This document shows positions 23,093-40,843 of a stretch of DNA of 64,000 nucleotides, in pieces. The translations under genes were made by a program, and so were the position numbers. A model generated the notes under the pieces. It was not told the DNA's origin. It made no database searches and saw only the letters and a list, made by a program, of their open reading frames with translations. How positions within the stretch are numbered: the stretch's first letter is position 1; each line of letters begins with the position of its first letter. This DNA comes from an uncultured Acidobacteriaceae bacterium (GTDB lineage Bacteria > Acidobacteriota > Terriglobia > Terriglobales > Acidobacteriaceae). The stretch is taken from NCBI GenBank assembly GCA_963707205.1, contig CAVPQE010000035.1, positions 8,164 through 72,163 of the forward strand. Reading direction: 5' to 3'.

Positions 23093-23947
23093 TTATTCCT
23101 TTAGATCCACGTGCTGCACGTCTTCAATCGTATGCCCCAGAAATCGCTCGCCCAGCCGGCGAAACTTCTCCACCGAATCAGTGGCGAAGAACTTGAGTCG
23201 CGGAAGCGCGCGTCGTTCTTCGGCGTCTCCGGTCGCGGGCACCAGCTGCTGCAGGCGCGAAGCCACGGCGCGGGCGGTAGATTCAGCCGAGTCCACGACG
23301 CTCACATGTCCCGGCGTTATGCGATGCAGCAGCGGCTTAAGCAACGGATAGTGTGTGCAGCCTAAAACAAGGGTATCGGCATCGTGGAATCCGTCCGCGA
23401 AGGCCTCTGCAAGATAAATCCTTGCCACCTGCTCGGTGACGGCGTGATCCACCCATCCTTCTTCGACCAGCGGAACCAGCAGAGGACACGCCTTCTCCCG
23501 AGCGCTCAGGCCGCGAGCCTCGAGCGCTCGGCGGTAGGCGTGGCTGCTGACCGTAGCCTCCGTTCCAATCACCACAATTTTCTGATTCTTGGTAGCAGCG
23601 GCTGCGGCCTCCGCGCCCGGCTCAATCACTCCGACCACTGGGACATGAGCCGCCGACGTAATGCGATCCAGCGCCAGCGCCGTCGCTGTATTGCAGGCGA
23701 TCACCAGCATCTGCGCGCCATGCGATTCGAGATAGTGCGCCGCTTCCACGGCGTAGCGGGCCACGGTTTCGACCGATTTCGATCCGTAGGGCAGGCGCGC
23801 CGTATCGCCGAAGTAGGCGTAATCCGATCGCGGGATTAGCTCAAGTAAAGCTTTAAGGACAGTCAGCCCGCCAAACCCGGAGTCGAATACGCCAATGGTC
23901 GGACGACGTCGCGAACTTGGATCTCCCGCGCCGTGTTCAGCGCTCAT
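23093..23947 (-). CDS. murI: glutamate racemase
   Basis: 284 aa. GVFDSGFGGLTV, IACNTATA and LGCTHYPLL motifs. Confidence 0.9.
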   Translation of the reverse strand: MSAEHGAGDPSSRRRPTIGVFDSGFGGLTVLKALLELIPRSDYAYFGDTARLPYGSKSVETVARYAVEAAHYLESHGAQMLVIACNTATALALDRITSAAHVPVVGVIEPGAEAAAAATKNQKIVVIGTEATVSSHAYRRALEARGLSAREKACPLLVPLVEEGWVDHAVTEQVARIYLAEAFADGFHDADTLVLGCTHYPLLKPLLHRITPGHVSVVDSAESTARAVASRLQQLVPATGDAEERRALPRLKFFATDSVEKFRRLGERFLGHTIEDVQHVDLKE

Positions 23948-25208
23948 TCAGCTCTTCCCGAGTGAACTTACGACCAGGGCTCACAGTCTCTCTTAGCTTG
24001 GGAATCGGATGTTCCGCGCAGCATGGTCCCGGCGGAATCCGTGCCCCGTGCGGGCAAGTCCTCGGATGCCCGAGGAATGTGCAGATCTTGTCGGTCGCCT
24101 CCGGCGAAAGAATGTGCTCGAACTTGCAGGCCTGCTGCTCGATCTCCGATTCGCTGTCCATCGCCAGGCTGTCGGTAAAGAGCCGCTCGGCCAGCCGATG
24201 CCGGCGGATGATGCTACCCGCGCGCTCCCGCCCGCGTGGCGTGAGTTCGACAATCAGAGTGCCGTCGCCCAAAGACGCGGCCACCGGTTTCAGTGCCTCG
24301 TGGCAGGGATTCACGAACGGCTTGTGATCATGCGGCTGCGGCGGGTGGGGAGCCGAGACCACCAGCCCCATCTCGATCATCTTTTCAATGGCCAGGCTGA
24401 CCGGCAGCGCGCCGTGTACTTCCATGCGCTCGACTTCGGCGATCTCTTTATGCTCCTCCAGCACCCACAGCTCTTCCAGAACCTCGTCCAGTTGCTCCTC
24501 GTCGGCCATGGAGAACACTTCCTGCGACGCGATCTTGCCATGATGCAACTCGATCCGCCGGTCGGCCAGCCGCGCCACCACCGGATCGTGCGTGACCATC
24601 ACAATGGTGCGTCCCTGCTGATGAAATTCGCGCAGCAGCCGCAACACGATTTCCTCATTCAGTGCGTCCAGGTTCCCAGTGGGCTCGTCGGCCAGAATGA
24701 TGCGCGGATCATTAATCAGCGCGCGGGCAATGCACACCCGTTGCTGCTCCCCGCCGGACAACTGAGAAGGCAGGTGCTGAGCGCGGTCGCCCAGTCCCAC
24801 GCGGGCCAGCGCTTCGACCGCTTCTTTTTCGTCGGTCATGCTGTGGAAATACTGCGCGAGCATGACATTCTCGACGGCGGTGAGAAAGGGAATCAGGTGG
24901 AATTGCTGGAAGATGAATCCAATTTTTTCCGCGCGCACCCGGTTTAAGTTTGCGGCAGAGATCCCAGCCACATTCTGCCCGTCGAGCCAGATCTCGCCCG
25001 ACGAAGGCCGATCAAGGCAGCCAATCAGGTTCACCAGCGTCGACTTTCCCGATCCCGACGGCCCCATGATCGACAGCCATTCCCCCTGCGTGACGTGCAG
25101 CGAGATATGGTCGAGAGCATGAATGGAGCCGTTGTCTTTGCCCGCCCCTTTCCCGTTTCCCGCTTCTTTGGCGGGGTAGAGCTTGGTGACATCCTTGATC
25201 TGAATCAT
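23937..25208 (-). CDS. ABC transporter ATPase (MacB/LolD-like) fused to a DtxR/MntR-like metal-sensor domain
   Basis: 423 aa. Walker [10 protein letters not shown], signature LSGGEQQR, Walker B ILADEPT. Residues ~236-423 then carry [10 protein letters not shown]..., [25 protein letters not shown]..., [14 protein letters not shown]..., [15 protein letters not shown], typical of iron-dependent repressors. Confidence 0.85.
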
Positions 25209-25209
25209 T

Positions 25210-26367
25210 TCACTCTCCCCTCAGAATCACCGCCGGTTGCACTCGGCGCAGCAGCGAGATTGGGAGGATCGCCGACAACAACGTAACCGCCATGCTACCA
25301 GCCAGAACCACCGGCAGGACACTCAAACGCGGCACCACGGGAGCGTGAAAGTTAACCCTCCCGATCCACGCCGCAATGCCGATTCCGACCAGAAAACCGA
25401 TCAGCGCGCCAGTCGCCCCGAGCACAGCCGCCTCCGCGGCGAAGAATCCGTTCAGCAGCCGTCCTGACGCGCCCAGAGCCTTCATGATGGCGAAGTCGCG
25501 TCGCCGGTCGAATACCCATCCCATCAGCGTCGAAAGCACACACAGCGCCGCGGTAAGAATGATCAGCGACGCCGCGGCCAGCAGCGTCGCCCGTGTCTTG
25601 CCCAGCACGCGCGCTTCGCCCTCCATAATCTGCCGTACCGGGCGCACATCGCCAGCCGGAATCGCGTGTGCCACTTGGTTCATGATGCCGGCTATTTCTT
25701 CGGGAGAGCCGCTCGCCGCAATTTCAATCGTCGACGGTTGCACCCCGGTCCACGCCACGAAATCAGCTAGCGAGATGTAGATGCGGCTGTCTTCGGCCGC
25801 CCCCGTCTGCACCGTGCCCGCGGGACTCACGTGCAGAATCCGCCCTTGGAAGCTGAGATCGAATGTCTGACTCTTGGGCGCCACCGCCGGTCGTGCGCGC
25901 ACGCCGATCAGGGCCTGCTGCGGAGCAGACGGCCAGTTGCTCACCGACCACCAGCGATCGAGTTGACGCACCCGATCAAAGTCCGCGCCCGCCACCACAA
26001 TTGGCTGTCCGTCACTGGTGCGTGCGACCACCAGCCCAAACGGCGCCGCAATGCCGCGTCCCGCAAGAACAAAATCCACGCTCGCGAGCGCATCCGGGGA
26101 CAGGGAAGCGCCGTCCCTCCCTACCACGATAATATTCGCTCCATAGTTGCGAAACTCTCGCCGCAGCTTCGCCTGCACATCGACATAAAGATTCAGCATT
26201 GCTGTGGCCACCGCCGCCGCCACCACCATGGCGAACAGCGCCGCGGCAGCGCGTCCGCGCCGCAGCACCGCCGCTCGCACCAGCATCCGCAGGAACATCG
26301 AGGTATGCGGAGCATGTGCGCGGTTGGCGGCGAGATCTCGTGCGGAGTGTGACATGGGCGCGCTCAC
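25210..26367 (-). CDS. FtsX-domain ABC permease
   Basis: 385 aa. N-terminal TM, large periplasmic domain, three C-terminal TMs. GTGA overlap with the upstream gene (alternative ATG at 26355). Confidence 0.8.
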   Translation of the reverse strand: MSAPMSHSARDLAANRAHAPHTSMFLRMLVRAAVLRRGRAAAALFAMVVAAAVATAMLNLYVDVQAKLRREFRNYGANIIVVGRDGASLSPDALASVDFVLAGRGIAAPFGLVVARTSDGQPIVVAGADFDRVRQLDRWWSVSNWPSAPQQALIGVRARPAVAPKSQTFDLSFQGRILHVSPAGTVQTGAAEDSRIYISLADFVAWTGVQPSTIEIAASGSPEEIAGIMNQVAHAIPAGDVRPVRQIMEGEARVLGKTRATLLAAASLIILTAALCVLSTLMGWVFDRRRDFAIMKALGASGRLLNGFFAAEAAVLGATGALIGFLVGIGIAAWIGRVNFHAPVVPRLSVLPVVLAGSMAVTLLSAILPISLLRRVQPAVILRGE

Positions 26368-27629
26368 AGTTCCCCTCGCAGCGCAAACACCGGATCCAGA
26401 CCGACGGCGCGGCGAATGGCCGCAGCGCTTCCCGCGAACGTCACGATCACTGCGATCGCTAGGATCACCGGCAGCAGCACCGGTGAAATCGAAATATCCG
26501 AATTGAAGATCGAGTGCCCAATCTGGTGGGCGAGCACAGCGCCCACACCAAATCCCGCCAAGCCGCCGATCAACGCCAGCAGCGTGGCCTCCGCGAAAAA
26601 TATCGACGCGACGGCGAGTTTTCCCGCGCCCAGAGCCTTCATCAGTCCAACCTCGGCCCGGCGTTCAAAAATCGTAGTAGCCATCGCTGCCGACACAGCG
26701 AGTGCGGAGGCAAAAAGAGCGGCCAGGGTAATCAGGAATATGAGTCCTTCGATCCGCGTGAGAACCGCGCCCTCGTTTTGCGAAACCTGCCGAATCTGCT
26801 CGGCCTGCGAGTGCGGAATCGCCTCCGCCAGCTGAAACGCAATGGATTGCGGGTAAGGCGTGCAATACCAGCGGTCGTAGATCGCCCCCGACAGACTCTT
26901 GGGATCGCGACGTCCGAACGCATCTTCCGGCTTGGTCAACGCGCTAACATACACGCGCCGCACCGCGCCCGGCCTGCCTAGAATCTCCTGTGCCAGAGCA
27001 AGCGGGGCAACCACCTCATCGTCTTCAGCTCCGCCAGTGGAAAGAATTCCGCTCACCCGCACTCGGCGTCCAACCAGCGTGACTTCATCTCCCGACTTCT
27101 CACCCAACCGTGCGGCCAGCCTTTCCCCGAGTAAAACGTCCCGAGACGAATCCTCGGGCCATGCGCCAGAAACTTTCCACCACGGATGCGTGCTGCGTAC
27201 GCCGGTGGTGAACGCGTCCGTCCCGAAGGAAAGCTGCTTCGCAAAATAGGTCCCCAGCAGCGTGACATCCTGCCGCTTGCCGTTCTGTTCGATTGCCACA
27301 TTGACGGGAAGCATGGGCGCAAACCCTGTAATGTTGTTGTGCCAGAAAATCCCTTTGATTTTCGGCAGGTCCGATTCGCTGAGAAACGCCCCGTCGGTCG
27401 GAGGCTTCAGGTTGACGCCACCAATTTCCAGGTCAAGCGAATCTTCTTGTGGAGTTACAACCAGGTTGGCGCCAATGGTGCGCAGTTCGCGGTTGATCTT
27501 GTCGCCGATGTCGGTCGCCACGCCAATCATCGCCGTCGCGACAGTCACGCCCAGCGTAATCGCCGCGCCCGCCAGCAACTTGCGCCGCGTCTGGCGCCGG
27601 AAGGATTCGTAAACGAGCCGAACGAACAT
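26364..27629 (-). CDS. FtsX-domain ABC permease
   Basis: 421 aa. Same MacB-type topology. Paralogue of the downstream permease. Confidence 0.8.
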   Translation of the reverse strand: MFVRLVYESFRRQTRRKLLAGAAITLGVTVATAMIGVATDIGDKINRELRTIGANLVVTPQEDSLDLEIGGVNLKPPTDGAFLSESDLPKIKGIFWHNNITGFAPMLPVNVAIEQNGKRQDVTLLGTYFAKQLSFGTDAFTTGVRSTHPWWKVSGAWPEDSSRDVLLGERLAARLGEKSGDEVTLVGRRVRVSGILSTGGAEDDEVVAPLALAQEILGRPGAVRRVYVSALTKPEDAFGRRDPKSLSGAIYDRWYCTPYPQSIAFQLAEAIPHSQAEQIRQVSQNEGAVLTRIEGLIFLITLAALFASALAVSAAMATTIFERRAEVGLMKALGAGKLAVASIFFAEATLLALIGGLAGFGVGAVLAHQIGHSIFNSDISISPVLLPVILAIAVIVTFAGSAAAIRRAVGLDPVFALRGEL

Positions 27630-27632
27630 CGC

Positions 27633-28883
27633 TTACTGTTGTGCGAACATGCGACCGCCGGCCGCAACGTCCGCCTCCTGGATAATGACCGCGTCTGCCG
27701 TCTGCGTGGCCTTGAGCGGCACCGGATTGCAACCCCCGGCCCTGCCCACCGACTGCGGGTTAATCGGCGCGGCGCAATTCTTGCAGACCACTCCATTGGC
27801 GCTCTTGTAAAACCCGACCGATCCACAGATTTCGCAGGCGTCGAATACGGTTGCGATCTTACCGTCGGGCTTCTGATACAGCCAGAACCGGATCGCAGTC
27901 CCGTTCTCCGTCGCTTGAAAGCGATGCAGGTCGCCATCAGAAATCTGCGCCAGCGGAATACTCACCCGCCCGTTCGTAAACGTTACCTCGGTCGCTGGAG
28001 AAAGATTGCTGACGCTCTTGGCATACACAAATTCCGCCGTGATCAGGGCGATGAAGATGAACGAGAACGTGAGCACAGAAATCATCCACATGCGTTCGCG
28101 CCGGGCGCTCCACGCGGCCTTGCGGCGCTCCGCAGCCGACGCAGTGGCAAGCACGGGCTGACGCCGCTTGGCCTCGAACAGGATCATCAACGCCGCTAGC
28201 GCAAAAATGGTGACAAAGAAGAACCAGTCGTTGCTGACAATCGGGCCAATGATCGCCATCTCGCGCTTGGAAGATGCTATGACGCCGCTTTCCGAAAGCT
28301 CGTGCAGACCGGAAATCACCAACTGCGCCGCCACCAGGAACATGATCGCGGTCGTAATGCGGAAGAACTTCTGCAGGTTGATGCGCACGCTGCCCTTGAC
28401 GAACATCACGCCAAAGGCAATCGCGGCCAGCACGCCCAGCAGGGTGCCCAGAAAACTCATCAGTTCCGTGGAGTTCAAAGACACCGCGGAGAGAATCAGC
28501 ACCGTCTCCGCGCCTTCCCGCAGCACCATCAGAAAGATGAAGACGAACAGCCCAAACCAGGCGTCGTTGCCCGCCAGCAGCCCGACCTTGCCCTCGATGT
28601 CGCCCTTCATCTTGCGCCCCGTCTTCATCATGAAAATCACCATGGTGACGACGAAGAAGGCAGCCACCAGCATGATCCAGCCTTCGAACACATCTTCGTT
28701 CAGGTGAGTGCGGGAGATGACCACCGCCACGCCGATGCTGCCGAGGAAAGCTGCGATCAGCGCTGCGTACACGGTCTTGCGCAGTTCCTGCCGCCCGATC
28801 TTGGTCAGATACGCCAGGGTGATGCCGACAATGAGCGCGGCCTCAACCCCTTCGCGGAGCGTAATGATGAAAGCCTGGAGCAT
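27633..28883 (-). CDS. FTR1/EfeU-family iron permease fused to a DUF2318-like Cys-rich domain
   Basis: 416 aa. Two REGxE motifs (REGVEAAL, REGAETVL) in a 7-TM region. An extra TM is followed by CEICGSVGFYKSANGVVCKNCAAPINP, matching DUF2318-type proteins. Confidence 0.85.
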   Translation of the reverse strand: MLQAFIITLREGVEAALIVGITLAYLTKIGRQELRKTVYAALIAAFLGSIGVAVVISRTHLNEDVFEGWIMLVAAFFVVTMVIFMMKTGRKMKGDIEGKVGLLAGNDAWFGLFVFIFLMVLREGAETVLILSAVSLNSTELMSFLGTLLGVLAAIAFGVMFVKGSVRINLQKFFRITTAIMFLVAAQLVISGLHELSESGVIASSKREMAIIGPIVSNDWFFFVTIFALAALMILFEAKRRQPVLATASAAERRKAAWSARRERMWMISVLTFSFIFIALITAEFVYAKSVSNLSPATEVTFTNGRVSIPLAQISDGDLHRFQATENGTAIRFWLYQKPDGKIATVFDACEICGSVGFYKSANGVVCKNCAAPINPQSVGRAGGCNPVPLKATQTADAVIIQEADVAAGGRMFAQQ

Positions 28884-28898
28884 TTAATGATACCGTAT

Positions 28899-28917
28899 GA
28901 TTTTGAAAATGAATTTC
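28899..28917. promoter_or_regulatory. Fur-box-like AT-rich element
   Basis: GATTTTGAAAATGAATTTC matches 13 of 19 positions of GATAATGATAATCATTATC. Lies 16-34 nt upstream of the FTR1 start, in the only AT-rich patch nearby. Confidence 0.3.
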
Positions 28918-29115
28918 AATTTCAACTTCAAGGATATCTCCGCCCCGCCAAAGCCGTCAATCCGCCACCTCACAACCGCCTGTGATTAGGATCACACTGT
29001 CGGAATACCGCCCTGAAATGCTTCTGGCTGCAGGGAAGGTCTTAAACTGTCGCACGCGCTGCAGTCGGACGTAGGAAGGCCAGGGCTCTGCCAGTTGGAT
29101 TCGTTCCGAGGTAGC

Positions 29116-30216
29116 TTAGGGTTGGGGCAGGGCGTTCTTGGGAGCTTTCGCCGTCAACTTCCGGATGACAAACTCTTGCAACAGATTGGCCATGGCAGTT
29201 TCGCCAATCTCGATTGCTGCGTTTTCGAACGTCAATCCCACTCCATTGCGATCTTGCGCCGGATAGTAGAGGTTTGAAATTCCGCCCGCCGCCAAGCTCC
29301 CGAGGAGATTCGAATAGTTTGCCTGCCAGCGCCCATTGTCTCCCTTACACATCACGGAATTCGCGATCGCATACACAATCCGGGACGGCGTGCTACCGCT
29401 TCCTTTGTAAAAATACCGCGGGTCTTGTTTAAGAAGCGATGGCAGTATGGCAGATCCGATGAACGTGCCCGCAACCGTGTCGGCATAACCAGCGCCGAAT
29501 CGTTTTCCATAACCTTCCGCGCCTTGCCCATATTCTCTGAAATGATTTTGCGCCTGCTCAACTCCCGCCGCGCCTCCGACGAATACAAAGGTGAATGGAT
29601 CCACCACCGTCTTCCAGGCGAGGTTGAACTTTTGCTTCGAGTTGAGAGGAACTGCATTGGGGATGTAGCTGACATAAAAATTTGGCAGGACGCCGAGCAC
29701 GCGCTGCTTTTCTTCAATCTTGACCTCCTCTTCTGCCACGTCCGTCTGAGAGACCCCGACTTCTATCTCAGAGACATTGGTAGCCACGGCCAACGCGACC
29801 TGCGGGATAACGTCGATCTCCCCCGAGCGCAGGATTCCAGAGGATGTTTGCGATTCGAAGCCCGCCGACATAATGGTGAGCTGAAACGGTCCCGGAGCGA
29901 TGTTGGCAAAGGAAAATTGCCCATCGCCGCCTGATCGCACCTCTTGGCTTAAGGATTGATCTTCGCTAGCACGAGTGAGCTTCACCTGGGCTCCCGCGAT
30001 GACAGCTCCACTTTGATCAACGACCGTTCCGCTGATGCTTCCCGACATTGGCGGACTGGGCAGGTGCTCGTTGCTTGAGGCGGCCCCACGCTGTGCCGGA
30101 CTATCTGTTGAACCAGGCACAGGTATTTCGCGAGGGCTCTGTCCCGGGCAGAACGAAGTCCAGCTCAGAATGACCAGCGCGAAAACTATGAGTTTAGACT
30201 TGAACTGGAGGGCCAT
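29116..30216 (-). CDS. secreted protein with carboxypeptidase-regulatory-like (CarboxypepD_reg) domain
   Basis: 366 aa. Signal peptide, then SISGTVVDQSGAVIAGAQVKL...GDGQFSFANIAPGPFQLTI. C-terminal half unassigned. Confidence 0.6.
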   Translation of the reverse strand: MALQFKSKLIVFALVILSWTSFCPGQSPREIPVPGSTDSPAQRGAASSNEHLPSPPMSGSISGTVVDQSGAVIAGAQVKLTRASEDQSLSQEVRSGGDGQFSFANIAPGPFQLTIMSAGFESQTSSGILRSGEIDVIPQVALAVATNVSEIEVGVSQTDVAEEEVKIEEKQRVLGVLPNFYVSYIPNAVPLNSKQKFNLAWKTVVDPFTFVFVGGAAGVEQAQNHFREYGQGAEGYGKRFGAGYADTVAGTFIGSAILPSLLKQDPRYFYKGSGSTPSRIVYAIANSVMCKGDNGRWQANYSNLLGSLAAGGISNLYYPAQDRNGVGLTFENAAIEIGETAMANLLQEFVIRKLTAKAPKNALPQP

Positions 30217-39112: not shown

Positions 39113-40843
39113 TCAATGTGCCGTACTGGTTGCCGGGTCCGTCTGCATGACATAATCGCGCGCCGCGCCGGGCACACCGTACTCATACGGTCCATGGTTC
39201 ACCACCGGGGTCACGCCGCCAAAGTTGTCGTGCGGCGGCGGAGTCGCGGTCGTCCACTCCAGTGTGGTCGCTTCCCACGGATTGTCGCTGGCCTTCGGTC
39301 CCTTGAACATGCTCCAGAAGAGATTGATCACGAAAATGAACTGCGCCGCAATCGTGATGAACGCCGCATAGGTCATGAACGTCTGCAGCGGAATCAGCTT
39401 GGTCTGATAAGCCACTTCGGTGAACTGCGAGTAACGCCGCGTCTGCCCCGCCATCCCTAGATAATGCATCGGCATAAAAATGGCATACGTTCCCGCCAGC
39501 GTAATGAAGAAGTGCAACTTGCCCAGAGACTCATTCATCATCCGCCCGAACATCTTGGGGAACCAGTAGTACGTCGCCGCGAAAATGCCGAAGATAGCCG
39601 CCACGCCCATGATCAGGTGAAAGTGCCCGACCACAAAATACGTATCGTGCAACTGGATGTCGAGCACCGGCTGTGCCAGGAACGGCCCGCTCAATCCGCC
39701 GGAAACAAATAGCGAGACGAACCCGATGGCATACAGCATCGGAGTATGAAAGCGAATGCGCCCCTTGTACATCGTCCCCAGCCAGTTAAACGTCTTGATG
39801 GCCGAGGGCACGCCAATGCACATGGTCAGAATCGAAAACGCAAACGCCGAGTAAGGGCTCATCCCGCTCATGAACATGTGATGGCCCCACACCATGAATC
39901 CTAAAAAGCCGATCGACAACATGGCGTACACCATCGCCCGGTAGCCGAAAATCGGCTTGCGCGAAAACGTCGAAAGAATCTGCGACGTCACACCCATGCC
40001 CGGCAGGATGGCGATGTATACCTCGGGATGTCCGAAGAACCAGAACAGATGCTGCCACAGCAGCGGCGACCCCCCCTTGTGGCCCATCACCACGCCGTTC
40101 ACCACAACCAGCGGCACGTAAAAGCTGGTGCCGAGATTGCGATCCATCAGGAGCAGGATGCCTGCCGAGAGCAGGACGCCAAACGCCAGCAGTCCGAGAA
40201 TGGCGGTGATGAACCACGACCACACGGTCAACGGCATCCGCATCATGGTCATGCCCTTGGCCCGCATATCGAGCGTGGTCGTGAGGAAATTCAACGCGCC
40301 CATCAGCGAGGCTACGCAAAAAATCGCAATGCTCGTAATCCAGAGATCGGCGCCCAATTGTTCCCCGGGTCCGGCCGACGGCAGTGCGCTGAGCGGGGCG
40401 TATCCCGTCCACCCGTGCAGCGGCGCGCCTCCCGTCACGAAGAAGGCACAGATAATCACGACGAATCCCACAAACGTAGTCCAGAACGAAAGCATGTTCA
40501 GGACCGGGAACGCCATATCCGGTGCGCCGATTTGAATGGGCAGGAAGTAGTTTCCGAACCCGCCTTGCGGCGCCGTGGTCAGCACGAAAAACACCATGAT
40601 GGTGCCGTGCATGGTCAGCAGGCTGAGATATGTCTCGGGCTGGATCGTGCCAATCAGGGGCAGCACAGCCGCCGGCCAGATCAAGTGAATGCGCATCAAC
40701 AGCGACAAAAACATCCCGACAAACACGGCCGTGAGTGCCAGGAAAAAATACTGCATGCCGATGACTTTGTGATCCAGGCTGAAAATGTATTTCCGGATGA
40801 AACCCTGAGGAGCGTGCGCGTGTACCGAAGCCGGGGTCGCCAT
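39113..40843 (-). CDS. ctaD: cytochrome c oxidase subunit I
   Basis: Start moved to MATPASVHAHAPQGFIRKY (40843), 1 nt after the subunit II stop; 576 aa. Canonical heme-copper motifs (WFFGHPEVY, HHMF). Confidence 0.95.
   Translation of the reverse strand: MATPASVHAHAPQGFIRKYIFSLDHKVIGMQYFFLALTAVFVGMFLSLLMRIHLIWPAAVLPLIGTIQPETYLSLLTMHGTIMVFFVLTTAPQGGFGNYFLPIQIGAPDMAFPVLNMLSFWTTFVGFVVIICAFFVTGGAPLHGWTGYAPLSALPSAGPGEQLGADLWITSIAIFCVASLMGALNFLTTTLDMRAKGMTMMRMPLTVWSWFITAILGLLAFGVLLSAGILLLMDRNLGTSFYVPLVVVNGVVMGHKGGSPLLWQHLFWFFGHPEVYIAILPGMGVTSQILSTFSRKPIFGYRAMVYAMLSIGFLGFMVWGHHMFMSGMSPYSAFAFSILTMCIGVPSAIKTFNWLGTMYKGRIRFHTPMLYAIGFVSLFVSGGLSGPFLAQPVLDIQLHDTYFVVGHFHLIMGVAAIFGIFAATYYWFPKMFGRMMNESLGKLHFFITLAGTYAIFMPMHYLGMAGQTRRYSQFTEVAYQTKLIPLQTFMTYAAFITIAAQFIFVINLFWSMFKGPKASDNPWEATTLEWTTATPPPHDNFGGVTPVVNHGPYEYGVPGAARDYVMQTDPATSTAH

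Follow-up and report, generated by a model that had tools for sequence, protein, structure and literature searches.

Why should the ATPase of a transporter from the ATP-binding cassette (ABC) class end in a module built like the iron-dependent repressors DtxR and IdeR? The question is raised by a gene at 23937-25208 on the minus strand of a 64,000-nucleotide stretch of DNA from an uncultured Acidobacteriaceae bacterium (GenBank assembly GCA_963707205.1, contig CAVPQE010000035.1, positions 8,164 to 72,163), which is referred to here as the window. Judged by its sequence and its neighbors, the gene is best explained as encoding the FetD-like ATPase of a MacB-type ABC complex within an Ftr1-type ferrous iron uptake system. 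The DtxR module at its C-terminus appears to have been repurposed from a transcription factor to a built-in allosteric sensor of cytoplasmic Fe(II) that acts on the ATPase and trans-inhibits iron uptake, a reading to which we assign a probability of roughly 0.55. The module most likely shuts the transporter directly at iron sufficiency, because the metal-binding residues have been kept and the DNA-reading residues have not. The parts of the gene are as follows, with the ratio of nonsynonymous to synonymous substitution (dN/dS) calculated pairwise over 79 orthologues.

23937..25208, minus strand: whole gene, a single open reading frame encoding a 423-residue FetD-like ABC ATPase with a DtxR-like module (Pfam ABC_tran and Fe_dep_repr_C).
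24516..25208, minus strand: nucleotide-binding domain, residues 1-231, with all catalytic motifs (Pfam, NCBIfam, PDB profile; dN/dS 0.045).
24501..24515, minus strand: linker, residues 232-236 (FSMAD), placed by the secondary structure of the full-length AlphaFold model; its residues are nearly invariant in 79 species.
24243..24500, minus strand: diverged winged-helix domain, residues 237-322 (PF01325 subthreshold; AlphaFold/Foldseek fold; profile alignment to IdeR 8-64; dN/dS 0.049).
24258..24350, minus strand: wing insert of about 30 residues, residues 287-317 (column counts over 79 species; dN/dS 0.062; predicted local distance difference test score, pLDDT, about 70).
24015..24242, minus strand: metal-binding and dimerisation domain, residues 323-398 (Pfam Fe_dep_repr_C; phmmer against PDB; dN/dS 0.025).
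23937..24014, minus strand: unconstrained C-terminal tail, residues 399-423, and stop codon (dN/dS 0.52; 37% gaps; 52% majority identity; pLDDT below 50).

The domain order is thus that of a MacB/LolD-type ATPase (residues 1-231), a linker of about five residues, and a two-domain DtxR/IdeR-like module (residues 237-398). The original prediction, which was made from the sequence alone, had assigned a metalloregulator to 23937-24503, a span that corresponds to residues 236-423 and the stop codon, and the four peptides that it quoted are all found in the translation of the gene, at residues 244-253, 322-344, 361-370 and 379-392. The complete nucleotide-binding domain that it placed before the module is borne out by a Pfam ABC_tran match (E 5.7e-36) and by the presence of all catalytic motifs, namely Walker A (GPSGSGKST), the Q-loop, the signature LSGGEQQR, Walker B (ILADEPT) and the H-loop (VTHD). 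The top NCBIfam matches of this domain are MacB, LolD and FtsE (E 1e-59 to 1e-66). A PDB profile search with the full-length alignment, which is dominated by ATPase columns and is informative for the ATPase part only, returned MacB and LolD chains at E 1e-45 to 1e-51. In the full-length AlphaFold model, only about five residues separate the last ATPase strand (225-231) from module helix 1 (237-252). One distant fused clade, that of P0156, carries an additional Cys-containing stretch (…PLNCPLVNTGDCCTN…) between the ATPase domain and module helix 1.

Of the two domains of the module, the second is readily recognized. Pfam Fe_dep_repr_C (PF02742) matches residues 323-392 at E 8.4e-26, with 90.2 bits against a cutoff of 27, and in a phmmer search against PDB the same residues align to IdeR/DtxR residues 60-135 at E 6e-14. 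The first domain stays below the cutoff of its own family, Fe_dep_repress (PF01325; 15.7 bits against 26, E 0.018), so that the profile search suggested in the original prediction was positive for one of the two families that it named and formally negative for the other. This weak match sits at the expected place (residues 239-287, profile positions 5-56 of 60), and PF01325 is not found in the precomputed Pfam lists of the 240 relatives listed (120 relatives of the module and 120 free-standing proteins); the curated hidden Markov model misses the domain because it is too diverged. A model of residues 229-423 that was built with AlphaFold from an alignment of 143 relatives (pLDDT 87.3, predicted template-modelling score, pTM, 0.82) follows DtxR in the order of its elements, with helix 1, a short second element and a third helix, then a beta hairpin and finally the long helices of the dimerisation domain. 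In a Foldseek search of PDB with this model, the top matches were without exception IdeR/DtxR chains of two domains (7b1y_A, for instance, at E 1.3e-7), and the target-normalised template-modelling scores were 0.76-0.79 over about 164 columns. A single continuous match of a profile of the module family spans IdeR residues 8-133. The modelled structure recovers a complete two-domain IdeR fold, winged helix included, though this winged helix is highly diverged. The architecture that was first proposed, in which a MacB/LolD-type ATPase carries a full DtxR-like winged helix and a metal-binding domain at its C-terminus, is therefore correct at the level of fold.

By alignment, the module retains the metal ligands of DtxR and would be expected to bind metal. 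Conservation was counted over 143 family members mapped onto IdeR, the alignment to which serves as the only reference, and the positions are given in DtxR numbering. The equivalents of Glu83 (Glu341), Cys102 (Cys361) and Glu105 (Glu364) are conserved in 100% of the family, and those of His79 (His337) and His106 (His365) in 97-100%. The position of Met10 is taken by Glu242 in helix 1, which is Glu or His in 100% of the family, and that of His98 by Glu357, which is mostly Glu or His.

The residues that read DNA have apparently been lost. The equivalents of IdeR Arg27, Ser37, Pro39, Thr40, Gln43, Arg50 and Arg60 in the window protein are Val, Gly, Leu, Pro, Leu, Glu and Leu. Across the family, the positions of Arg27, Arg29, Ser37, Pro39, Thr40, Ser42, Gln43, Arg47, Arg50 and Arg60, which we take to be the DNA contacts in the IdeR/DtxR-DNA structures, are variable and often acidic. 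When mapped onto IdeR, the equivalent of the recognition helix is hydrophobic and acidic, and the profile alignment indicates that three residues of the QSGPT segment, with which the recognition helix of IdeR begins, are missing in the family. The net charge of the winged-helix domain is -14 in this protein and -7.7 on average in the family, compared with -4 in IdeR. Net charge was rejected as a test of DNA binding on its own because it is weak, domain 1 of IdeR itself being at -4, and the argument against DNA binding consequently leans mainly on the contact positions and the profile scores.

The fusion is real and is maintained by selection. A genome scan with one genome per species yielded 535 relatives, the best 80 of which were used for the orthologue analyses. 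Among these, an uninterrupted open reading frame of 407-433 residues is present in 78 other species-representative genomes (79 with the window), and at all 80 loci the fused open reading frame is continuous and is the last of the same four genes. Nearly all of the 80 are labelled as metagenome-assembled genomes of Acidobacteriota (Sulfotelmatobacter, 'Acidobacteriaceae', Terriglobia), with a few bins under other labels. When the full protein was used as the query, the search gave more than 120 clusters of proteins, 86-94% identical to it, from many independent contigs, and each of these clusters carries PF00005 and PF02742. An artefact of assembly that joined two genes, which had been raised as a concern, is ruled out by the 79 intact reading frames in independent genomes and by these clusters. 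With dN/dS values of 0.045 for the ATPase, 0.049 for the winged helix, 0.062 for the wing insert and 0.025 for the metal-binding domain (0.52 for the tail), the fusion is under strong purifying selection in the range of 0.03-0.06. More distant fused proteins, which are 40-60% identical in the module and belong to the same operon, are found in Solibacter-like bacteria, Polarisedimenticolia and other Acidobacteriota of several classes. Two candidates for natural two-gene forms, P0355 (L086) and P0343 (L087), were rejected because their breaks lie inside the ATPase domain and resemble frameshift errors. On the metagenome contigs of L086 (6476-7570) and L087 (5590-7900), the ATPase gene is broken within the nucleotide-binding domain, with its first part joined to the preceding permease at L087, and both breaks are probably frameshift errors of assembly. 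Database names for the fused proteins are generic, such as 'ATP-binding cassette domain-containing protein' and 'putative ABC transport system ATP-binding protein'.

The genes that accompany the fusion define the system in which it would act. The operon consists of four genes on the minus strand, with the ATPase fusion last and the following three before it.

27633..28883, minus strand: FTR1/EfeU-type iron permease fused to an FtrD-like (DUF2318) domain, the counterpart of FetM and FetA together (Pfam, NCBIfam).
26364..27629, minus strand: MacB_PCD and FtsX permease, FetB-like (Pfam; syntenic in the 80 loci).
25210..26367, minus strand: FtsX/MacB-type permease, FetC-like (Pfam FtsX; syntenic in the 80 loci).

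The product of the first gene matches Pfam FTR1 (E 2e-36), FtrD-like PF10080 (E 1.6e-29) and NCBIfam EfeU (E 8e-44). Its translation contains two REXXE motifs in the FTR1 part (REGVE and REGAE) and the motif CEIC-x13-CKNC-x14-C in the DUF2318 domain, which may be compared with the CxxC-x13-CxxC-x14/15-C motif of FetA (Liu et al. 2018, PMC6083913). No P19/FetP or thioredoxin gene was found by Pfam match among the 16 operon and neighboring open reading frames that were scanned. Judged by gene content, the operon is a compact form of the FetM/FetA/FetBCD system of Campylobacter. In C. jejuni, FetB, FetC and FetD of the FetMP-FetABCDEF cluster are each required for growth at low iron, and the cluster is regulated by Fur (PMC10783030). 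The two systems have in common an Ftr1-type permease, a DUF2318 protein with the Cys motif, two MacB-type permeases, an ATPase, and a Fur-type promoter box. They differ in that FetM and FetA are fused here, and in that P19/FetP and thioredoxin genes are not among the 16 reading frames scanned. The DtxR-like module sets the ATPase apart from C. jejuni FetD: the term 'DtxR' does not occur in PMC6083913, and PMC10783030 gives fetD by its ATP-binding motifs only.

A second line of evidence comes from relatives of the module that are not fused to an ATPase. The nearest of these are proteins of about 220 residues that combine Fe_dep_repr_C with FeoA and are 34-42% identical to the module. Fused and free-standing members have in common the signature ACxFEH...ICTxLGHPxxCPHGxxIPxGxCC, and the free-standing proteins have a degenerate, acidic N-terminal domain, as in the fused module, without a PF01325 match. 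In seven of the seven loci examined (L081-L083 and L088-L094, where the product is annotated as a 'metal-dependent transcriptional regulator'), the gene for the Fe_dep_repr_C and FeoA protein directly follows feoB; the sources are Brocadia (Planctomycetota), Blastocatellia (Acidobacteriota), four archaeal contigs and a deltaproteobacterium. On each of the archaeal contigs, the next gene encodes a canonical regulator with both PF01325 and PF02742, and in the deltaproteobacterial locus (L091) a Fur gene precedes feoB. Because the subfamily keeps company with Fe(II) transporters and occurs next to ordinary regulators, it looks like a transporter accessory and not like an operon repressor. These proteins (for example, P0474 of Candidatus Brocadia and P0459 of Blastocatellia) resemble the module in signature, in the acidic N-domain and in the tie to ferrous transporters, but they keep an SH3-like FeoA domain and are encoded by a separate gene after feoB, whereas the module lacks FeoA and is covalently attached to an ABC ATPase. 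No SH3-like (FeoA-like) third domain is present in the fused protein, which stops 1-25 residues past the CC motif with a tail that is unconstrained. Tentatively, and with less confidence than in the sensor role of the module itself, it can be suggested that this whole branch of the DtxR family no longer consists of transcription factors, but of portable iron (or iron-sulfur/redox) sensors that were installed in Fe(II) importers twice, once with FeoA/FeoB in Bacteria and Archaea and once as the FetD fusion in Acidobacteriota.

How could such a module act on a transporter? Regulation of this kind has precedent in MetNI and ModBC, where trans-inhibition via a C-terminal domain of the ABC ATPase is established (reviewed in PMC10710835). 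The two ATPase subunits of one transporter would set two modules side by side, which would allow dimerisation like that of DtxR. Rising cytoplasmic Fe(II) (or Mn(II)) would fill the conserved primary site, formed by Glu242 of helix 1 with Cys361, Glu364 and His365, and this filling would re-orient domain 1 against domain 2, as it does in DtxR. Because helix 1 lies only about five residues from the last ATPase strand, the movement would, in this proposal, be passed through the linker to the ATPase dimer and block its cycle of closing and opening, and iron uptake would stop. What we infer among these steps is that the modules bind metal and dimerise, which metal they sense, and that the effect is inhibitory. 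Trans-inhibition had already been proposed in the original prediction, and it fits all of the comparative evidence: the retained ligands, the linker of about five residues, and the relatives in feoB operons. The other possibility offered there, sequestration of a DNA-binding regulator at the membrane, appears poorly supported, as PF01325 stays below its cutoff here and is absent from the 240 relatives listed, the contact residues are not conserved and the operator has a Fur-like layout; the earlier interpretation is thus partly supported, being right on the architecture and compatible with the evidence for one of the two functions that it entertained.

Several observations weigh against this sensor model. 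That the imported metal inhibits the transporter is an assumption, because the substrate of FetBCD-type complexes and the direction in which they move it are not established (PMC10783030), and activation instead of inhibition is equally possible on structural grounds. The full-length AlphaFold models are inconsistent (pLDDT 57-80) and provide no inter-domain geometry that would back the proposed coupling; in the model with a pLDDT of 80 and a pTM of 0.60, the domains are good and their mutual arrangement is undefined. Within the clade, selection constrains the winged-helix region no less strongly than the ATPase domain (dN/dS 0.049 and 0.045, respectively), and it must therefore have some function, of which a diverged DNA specificity is one option. 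An AT-rich motif (TTGAAAATGGATTTCATTTTTAC), related to the operator-like element of the window operon that is discussed below, lies about 70-95 nt upstream of feoB at 3543-3565 of L088/L089 in a Blastocatellia genome; since that operon encodes a member of the subfamily, autoregulation by the module would fit as well. Lastly, conserved extra Cys and His residues appear to point to a second cofactor site, with a role outside of a simple Fe(II) model.

These extra residues are the basis of the alternative that survives best, although it too must be regarded as unlikely. It holds that the module is a redox or iron-sulfur (or zinc) sensor, and that the state of a cofactor, set by oxygen or by iron-sulfur sufficiency, gates the ATPase by analogy with FeoC and FeoB. 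Residues 376-397 (24018-24083, minus strand) contain a subfamily-specific set of the form C-x8-C-x10-CC with two His, comprising Cys376, His381, Cys385, His387, Cys396 and Cys397. In fused and free-standing members alike, there is no variation at the four Cys or at His381, and His387 is conserved in at least 90%. IdeR is without this set, with SPFG in place of CPHG and no CC, and the PDB alignments show that DtxR/IdeR proteins carry SP[FY]G. The set could form an iron-sulfur site, but it could equally form a structural zinc site. The wing insert, in which His288, His293, His295, Cys302 and His303 are invariant among the 79 species of the Sulfotelmatobacter-type clade, may be an additional metal or cluster site, yet it is not present in the fused clades of P0143, P0156 and P0197 in the family alignment. 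A redox-linked system is further suggested by the Cys-rich DUF2318 partner and by the thioredoxins of the Campylobacter cluster (PMC6083913, PMC10783030), and FeoC provides a precedent (PMC10710835). The full conservation of the classical primary and ancillary DtxR ligands nevertheless argues for ordinary sensing of a divalent metal.

The notion that the module is still a DNA-binding repressor, only tethered to a membrane transporter, is more doubtful still. In its simplest form, the metal-bound module would repress its own operon at a palindrome at 28903-28925; in a variant of this idea, transport activity would release or sequester the repressor, as in the coupling of MalK and MalT. The elements concerned lie before the first gene of the operon.

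28931..28960, minus strand: promoter-like TTGACG-18-TATCCT, directly upstream of the operator (consensus scan; both hexamers conserved across loci).
28903..28925, minus strand: AT-rich operator-like element of 23 bp, TTGAAATTGAAATTCATTTTCAA, with two overlapping 7-1-7 boxes (conserved in 78 of 79 loci).

In favor of this reading, a conserved palindromic operator lies at the promoter of the very operon that encodes the module. The 23-bp element is found unchanged in 66 of the 79 loci and with a single mismatch in 12 others; its flanks vary, and its distance to the start codon ranges from 17 to 205 nt. The retained and strongly constrained winged-helix fold would also agree with such a repressor, as would the related motif before the feoB operon that encodes a free-standing subfamily member (L088/L089). 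Neither a Fur gene nor a second DtxR gene was found in the 64-kb window by tblastn with E. coli Fur and IdeR.

The form of the element speaks against this reading. It is built from two 7-1-7 inverted repeats, TGAAAWT-N-AWTTTCA, which overlap with an offset of 6 bp, at 28904-18 and 28910-24. To judge from this repeat pattern (TGAnAnT-N-AnTnTCA), it has the layout of a Fur box and is unlike the IdeR/DtxR box. The classical Fur box is GATAATGATAATCATTATC, and the likeness of the 7-1-7 layout to it rests on general knowledge. The condition of the winged helix is equally unfavorable to a repressor: beyond the missing PF01325 matches, the unconserved contact positions, the acidic recognition-helix equivalent and the three absent residues of the QSGPT segment, an insert of about 30 residues interrupts the wing. 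Moreover, feoB loci encode a canonical regulator next to the non-canonical one. Most likely, a Fur-type protein that is encoded elsewhere acts at 28903-28925 and exerts a separate control over transcription of the operon, and the motif at L088/L089 hints at an iron-responsive regulator that is shared across Acidobacteriota. No further copy of the operator was found at up to three mismatches in the window or in the 16-kb related loci. A single weak 7-1-7 match, at 40780, falls within an open reading frame and is probably due to chance.

Least likely of all is that the module is a cytoplasmic acceptor or chaperone for Fe(II) from FTR1 without any regulation of the ATPase, or that it activates ABC-driven export or repair at high metal: each module has several candidate metal sites and is held at the membrane beside the FTR1 and DUF2318 protein of the same operon, and the FetBCD-type ABC complex is without an established function (PMC10783030), but DtxR-family domains are known as sensors and not as carriers, fusion to the ATPase through a five-residue linker is typical of the allosteric domains in MetN, ModC and MalK, and regulation is also indicated by the parallel fusion to FeoA, which acts on FeoB as an accessory.

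If the module is thus taken to be a built-in Fe(II) sensor of the ATPase, it can be placed among systems that are already known. With the DtxR/IdeR regulators (M. tuberculosis IdeR, 1fx7/2isy; S. erythraea IdeR, 7b1v), it has in common the two-domain fold and the ligands of domains 1 and 2. Unlike these regulators, it is not free in the cytoplasm but sits behind an ABC ATPase; it has no SH3-like third domain; its DNA-binding profile match is subthreshold, with lost contact residues and a strongly acidic winged helix; and it possesses four additional invariant Cys, two His and a His/Cys-rich wing insert. MetN with its C2 domain, ModC and MalK resemble the fusion in that a ligand-binding, dimerising domain directly follows the ATPase, in two copies per transporter, and in having a presumed ligand that is related to what is transported (PMC10710835). 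They differ in fold, which is here a DtxR-type winged helix with a helical dimerisation domain, and in host, which is here a MacB/LolCDE-type (type VII) complex and not a type I importer. In addition, the metal probably crosses the FTR1 permease here and not the ABC complex. FeoC, which binds an iron-sulfur cofactor, is also a winged-helix protein of Fe(II) uptake that has Cys ligands and acts on its transporter post-translationally (PMC10710835), but it is small and unrelated, lacks the DtxR dimerisation domain, and protects FeoB from proteolysis. C-terminal regulatory domains on ABC ATPases and DtxR-type sensors are both known; what appears to be new is their combination, together with the apparent loss of DNA reading. 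Literature searches retrieved no paper on this fusion, nor any on the FeoA-linked subfamily as transporter regulators.

Models of iron homeostasis rest almost wholly on transcriptional control of the Fur/DtxR type, and to our knowledge post-translational feedback on iron importers is poorly documented. If a whole branch of the DtxR family has indeed turned into such sensors, the uptake of ferrous iron would be curbed at the protein level within seconds, and the FetBCD ABC complex would be the control point of Ftr1-type iron uptake. The fusion would link the metal status of the cytoplasm to the FetBCD-type complex of the widespread FetMP/Ftr1-P19 systems, among them those of Campylobacter, Yersinia and Bordetella. 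It also suggests that many of the feoB-adjacent proteins annotated as a 'metal-dependent transcriptional regulator' may be regulators of FeoB and not repressors, and it offers a compact system for examining how the metal-induced domain movement of DtxR-type proteins can be coupled to a different output. The bacteria concerned, Sulfotelmatobacter-like Acidobacteriota, are abundant in peat and acidic soils, where the supply of Fe(II) fluctuates strongly.

Two features at the borders of the operon complete the description of the locus. At its downstream end, the unconstrained tail of the fusion overlaps the start of a glutamate-racemase-like (murI-like) gene (23093-23947, minus strand) by 11 nt in this genome; the length of the tail varies among species, and elsewhere the glutamate-racemase-like gene lies up to about 2 kb further off. 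Upstream, at 29116-30216 on the minus strand, a gene encodes a CarboxypepD_reg-domain protein with a signal-peptide-like N-terminus. It probably stands outside of the iron system because it occupies this position in only 2 of the 80 related loci; at one more locus, L041, a weaker copy is found in a different place.

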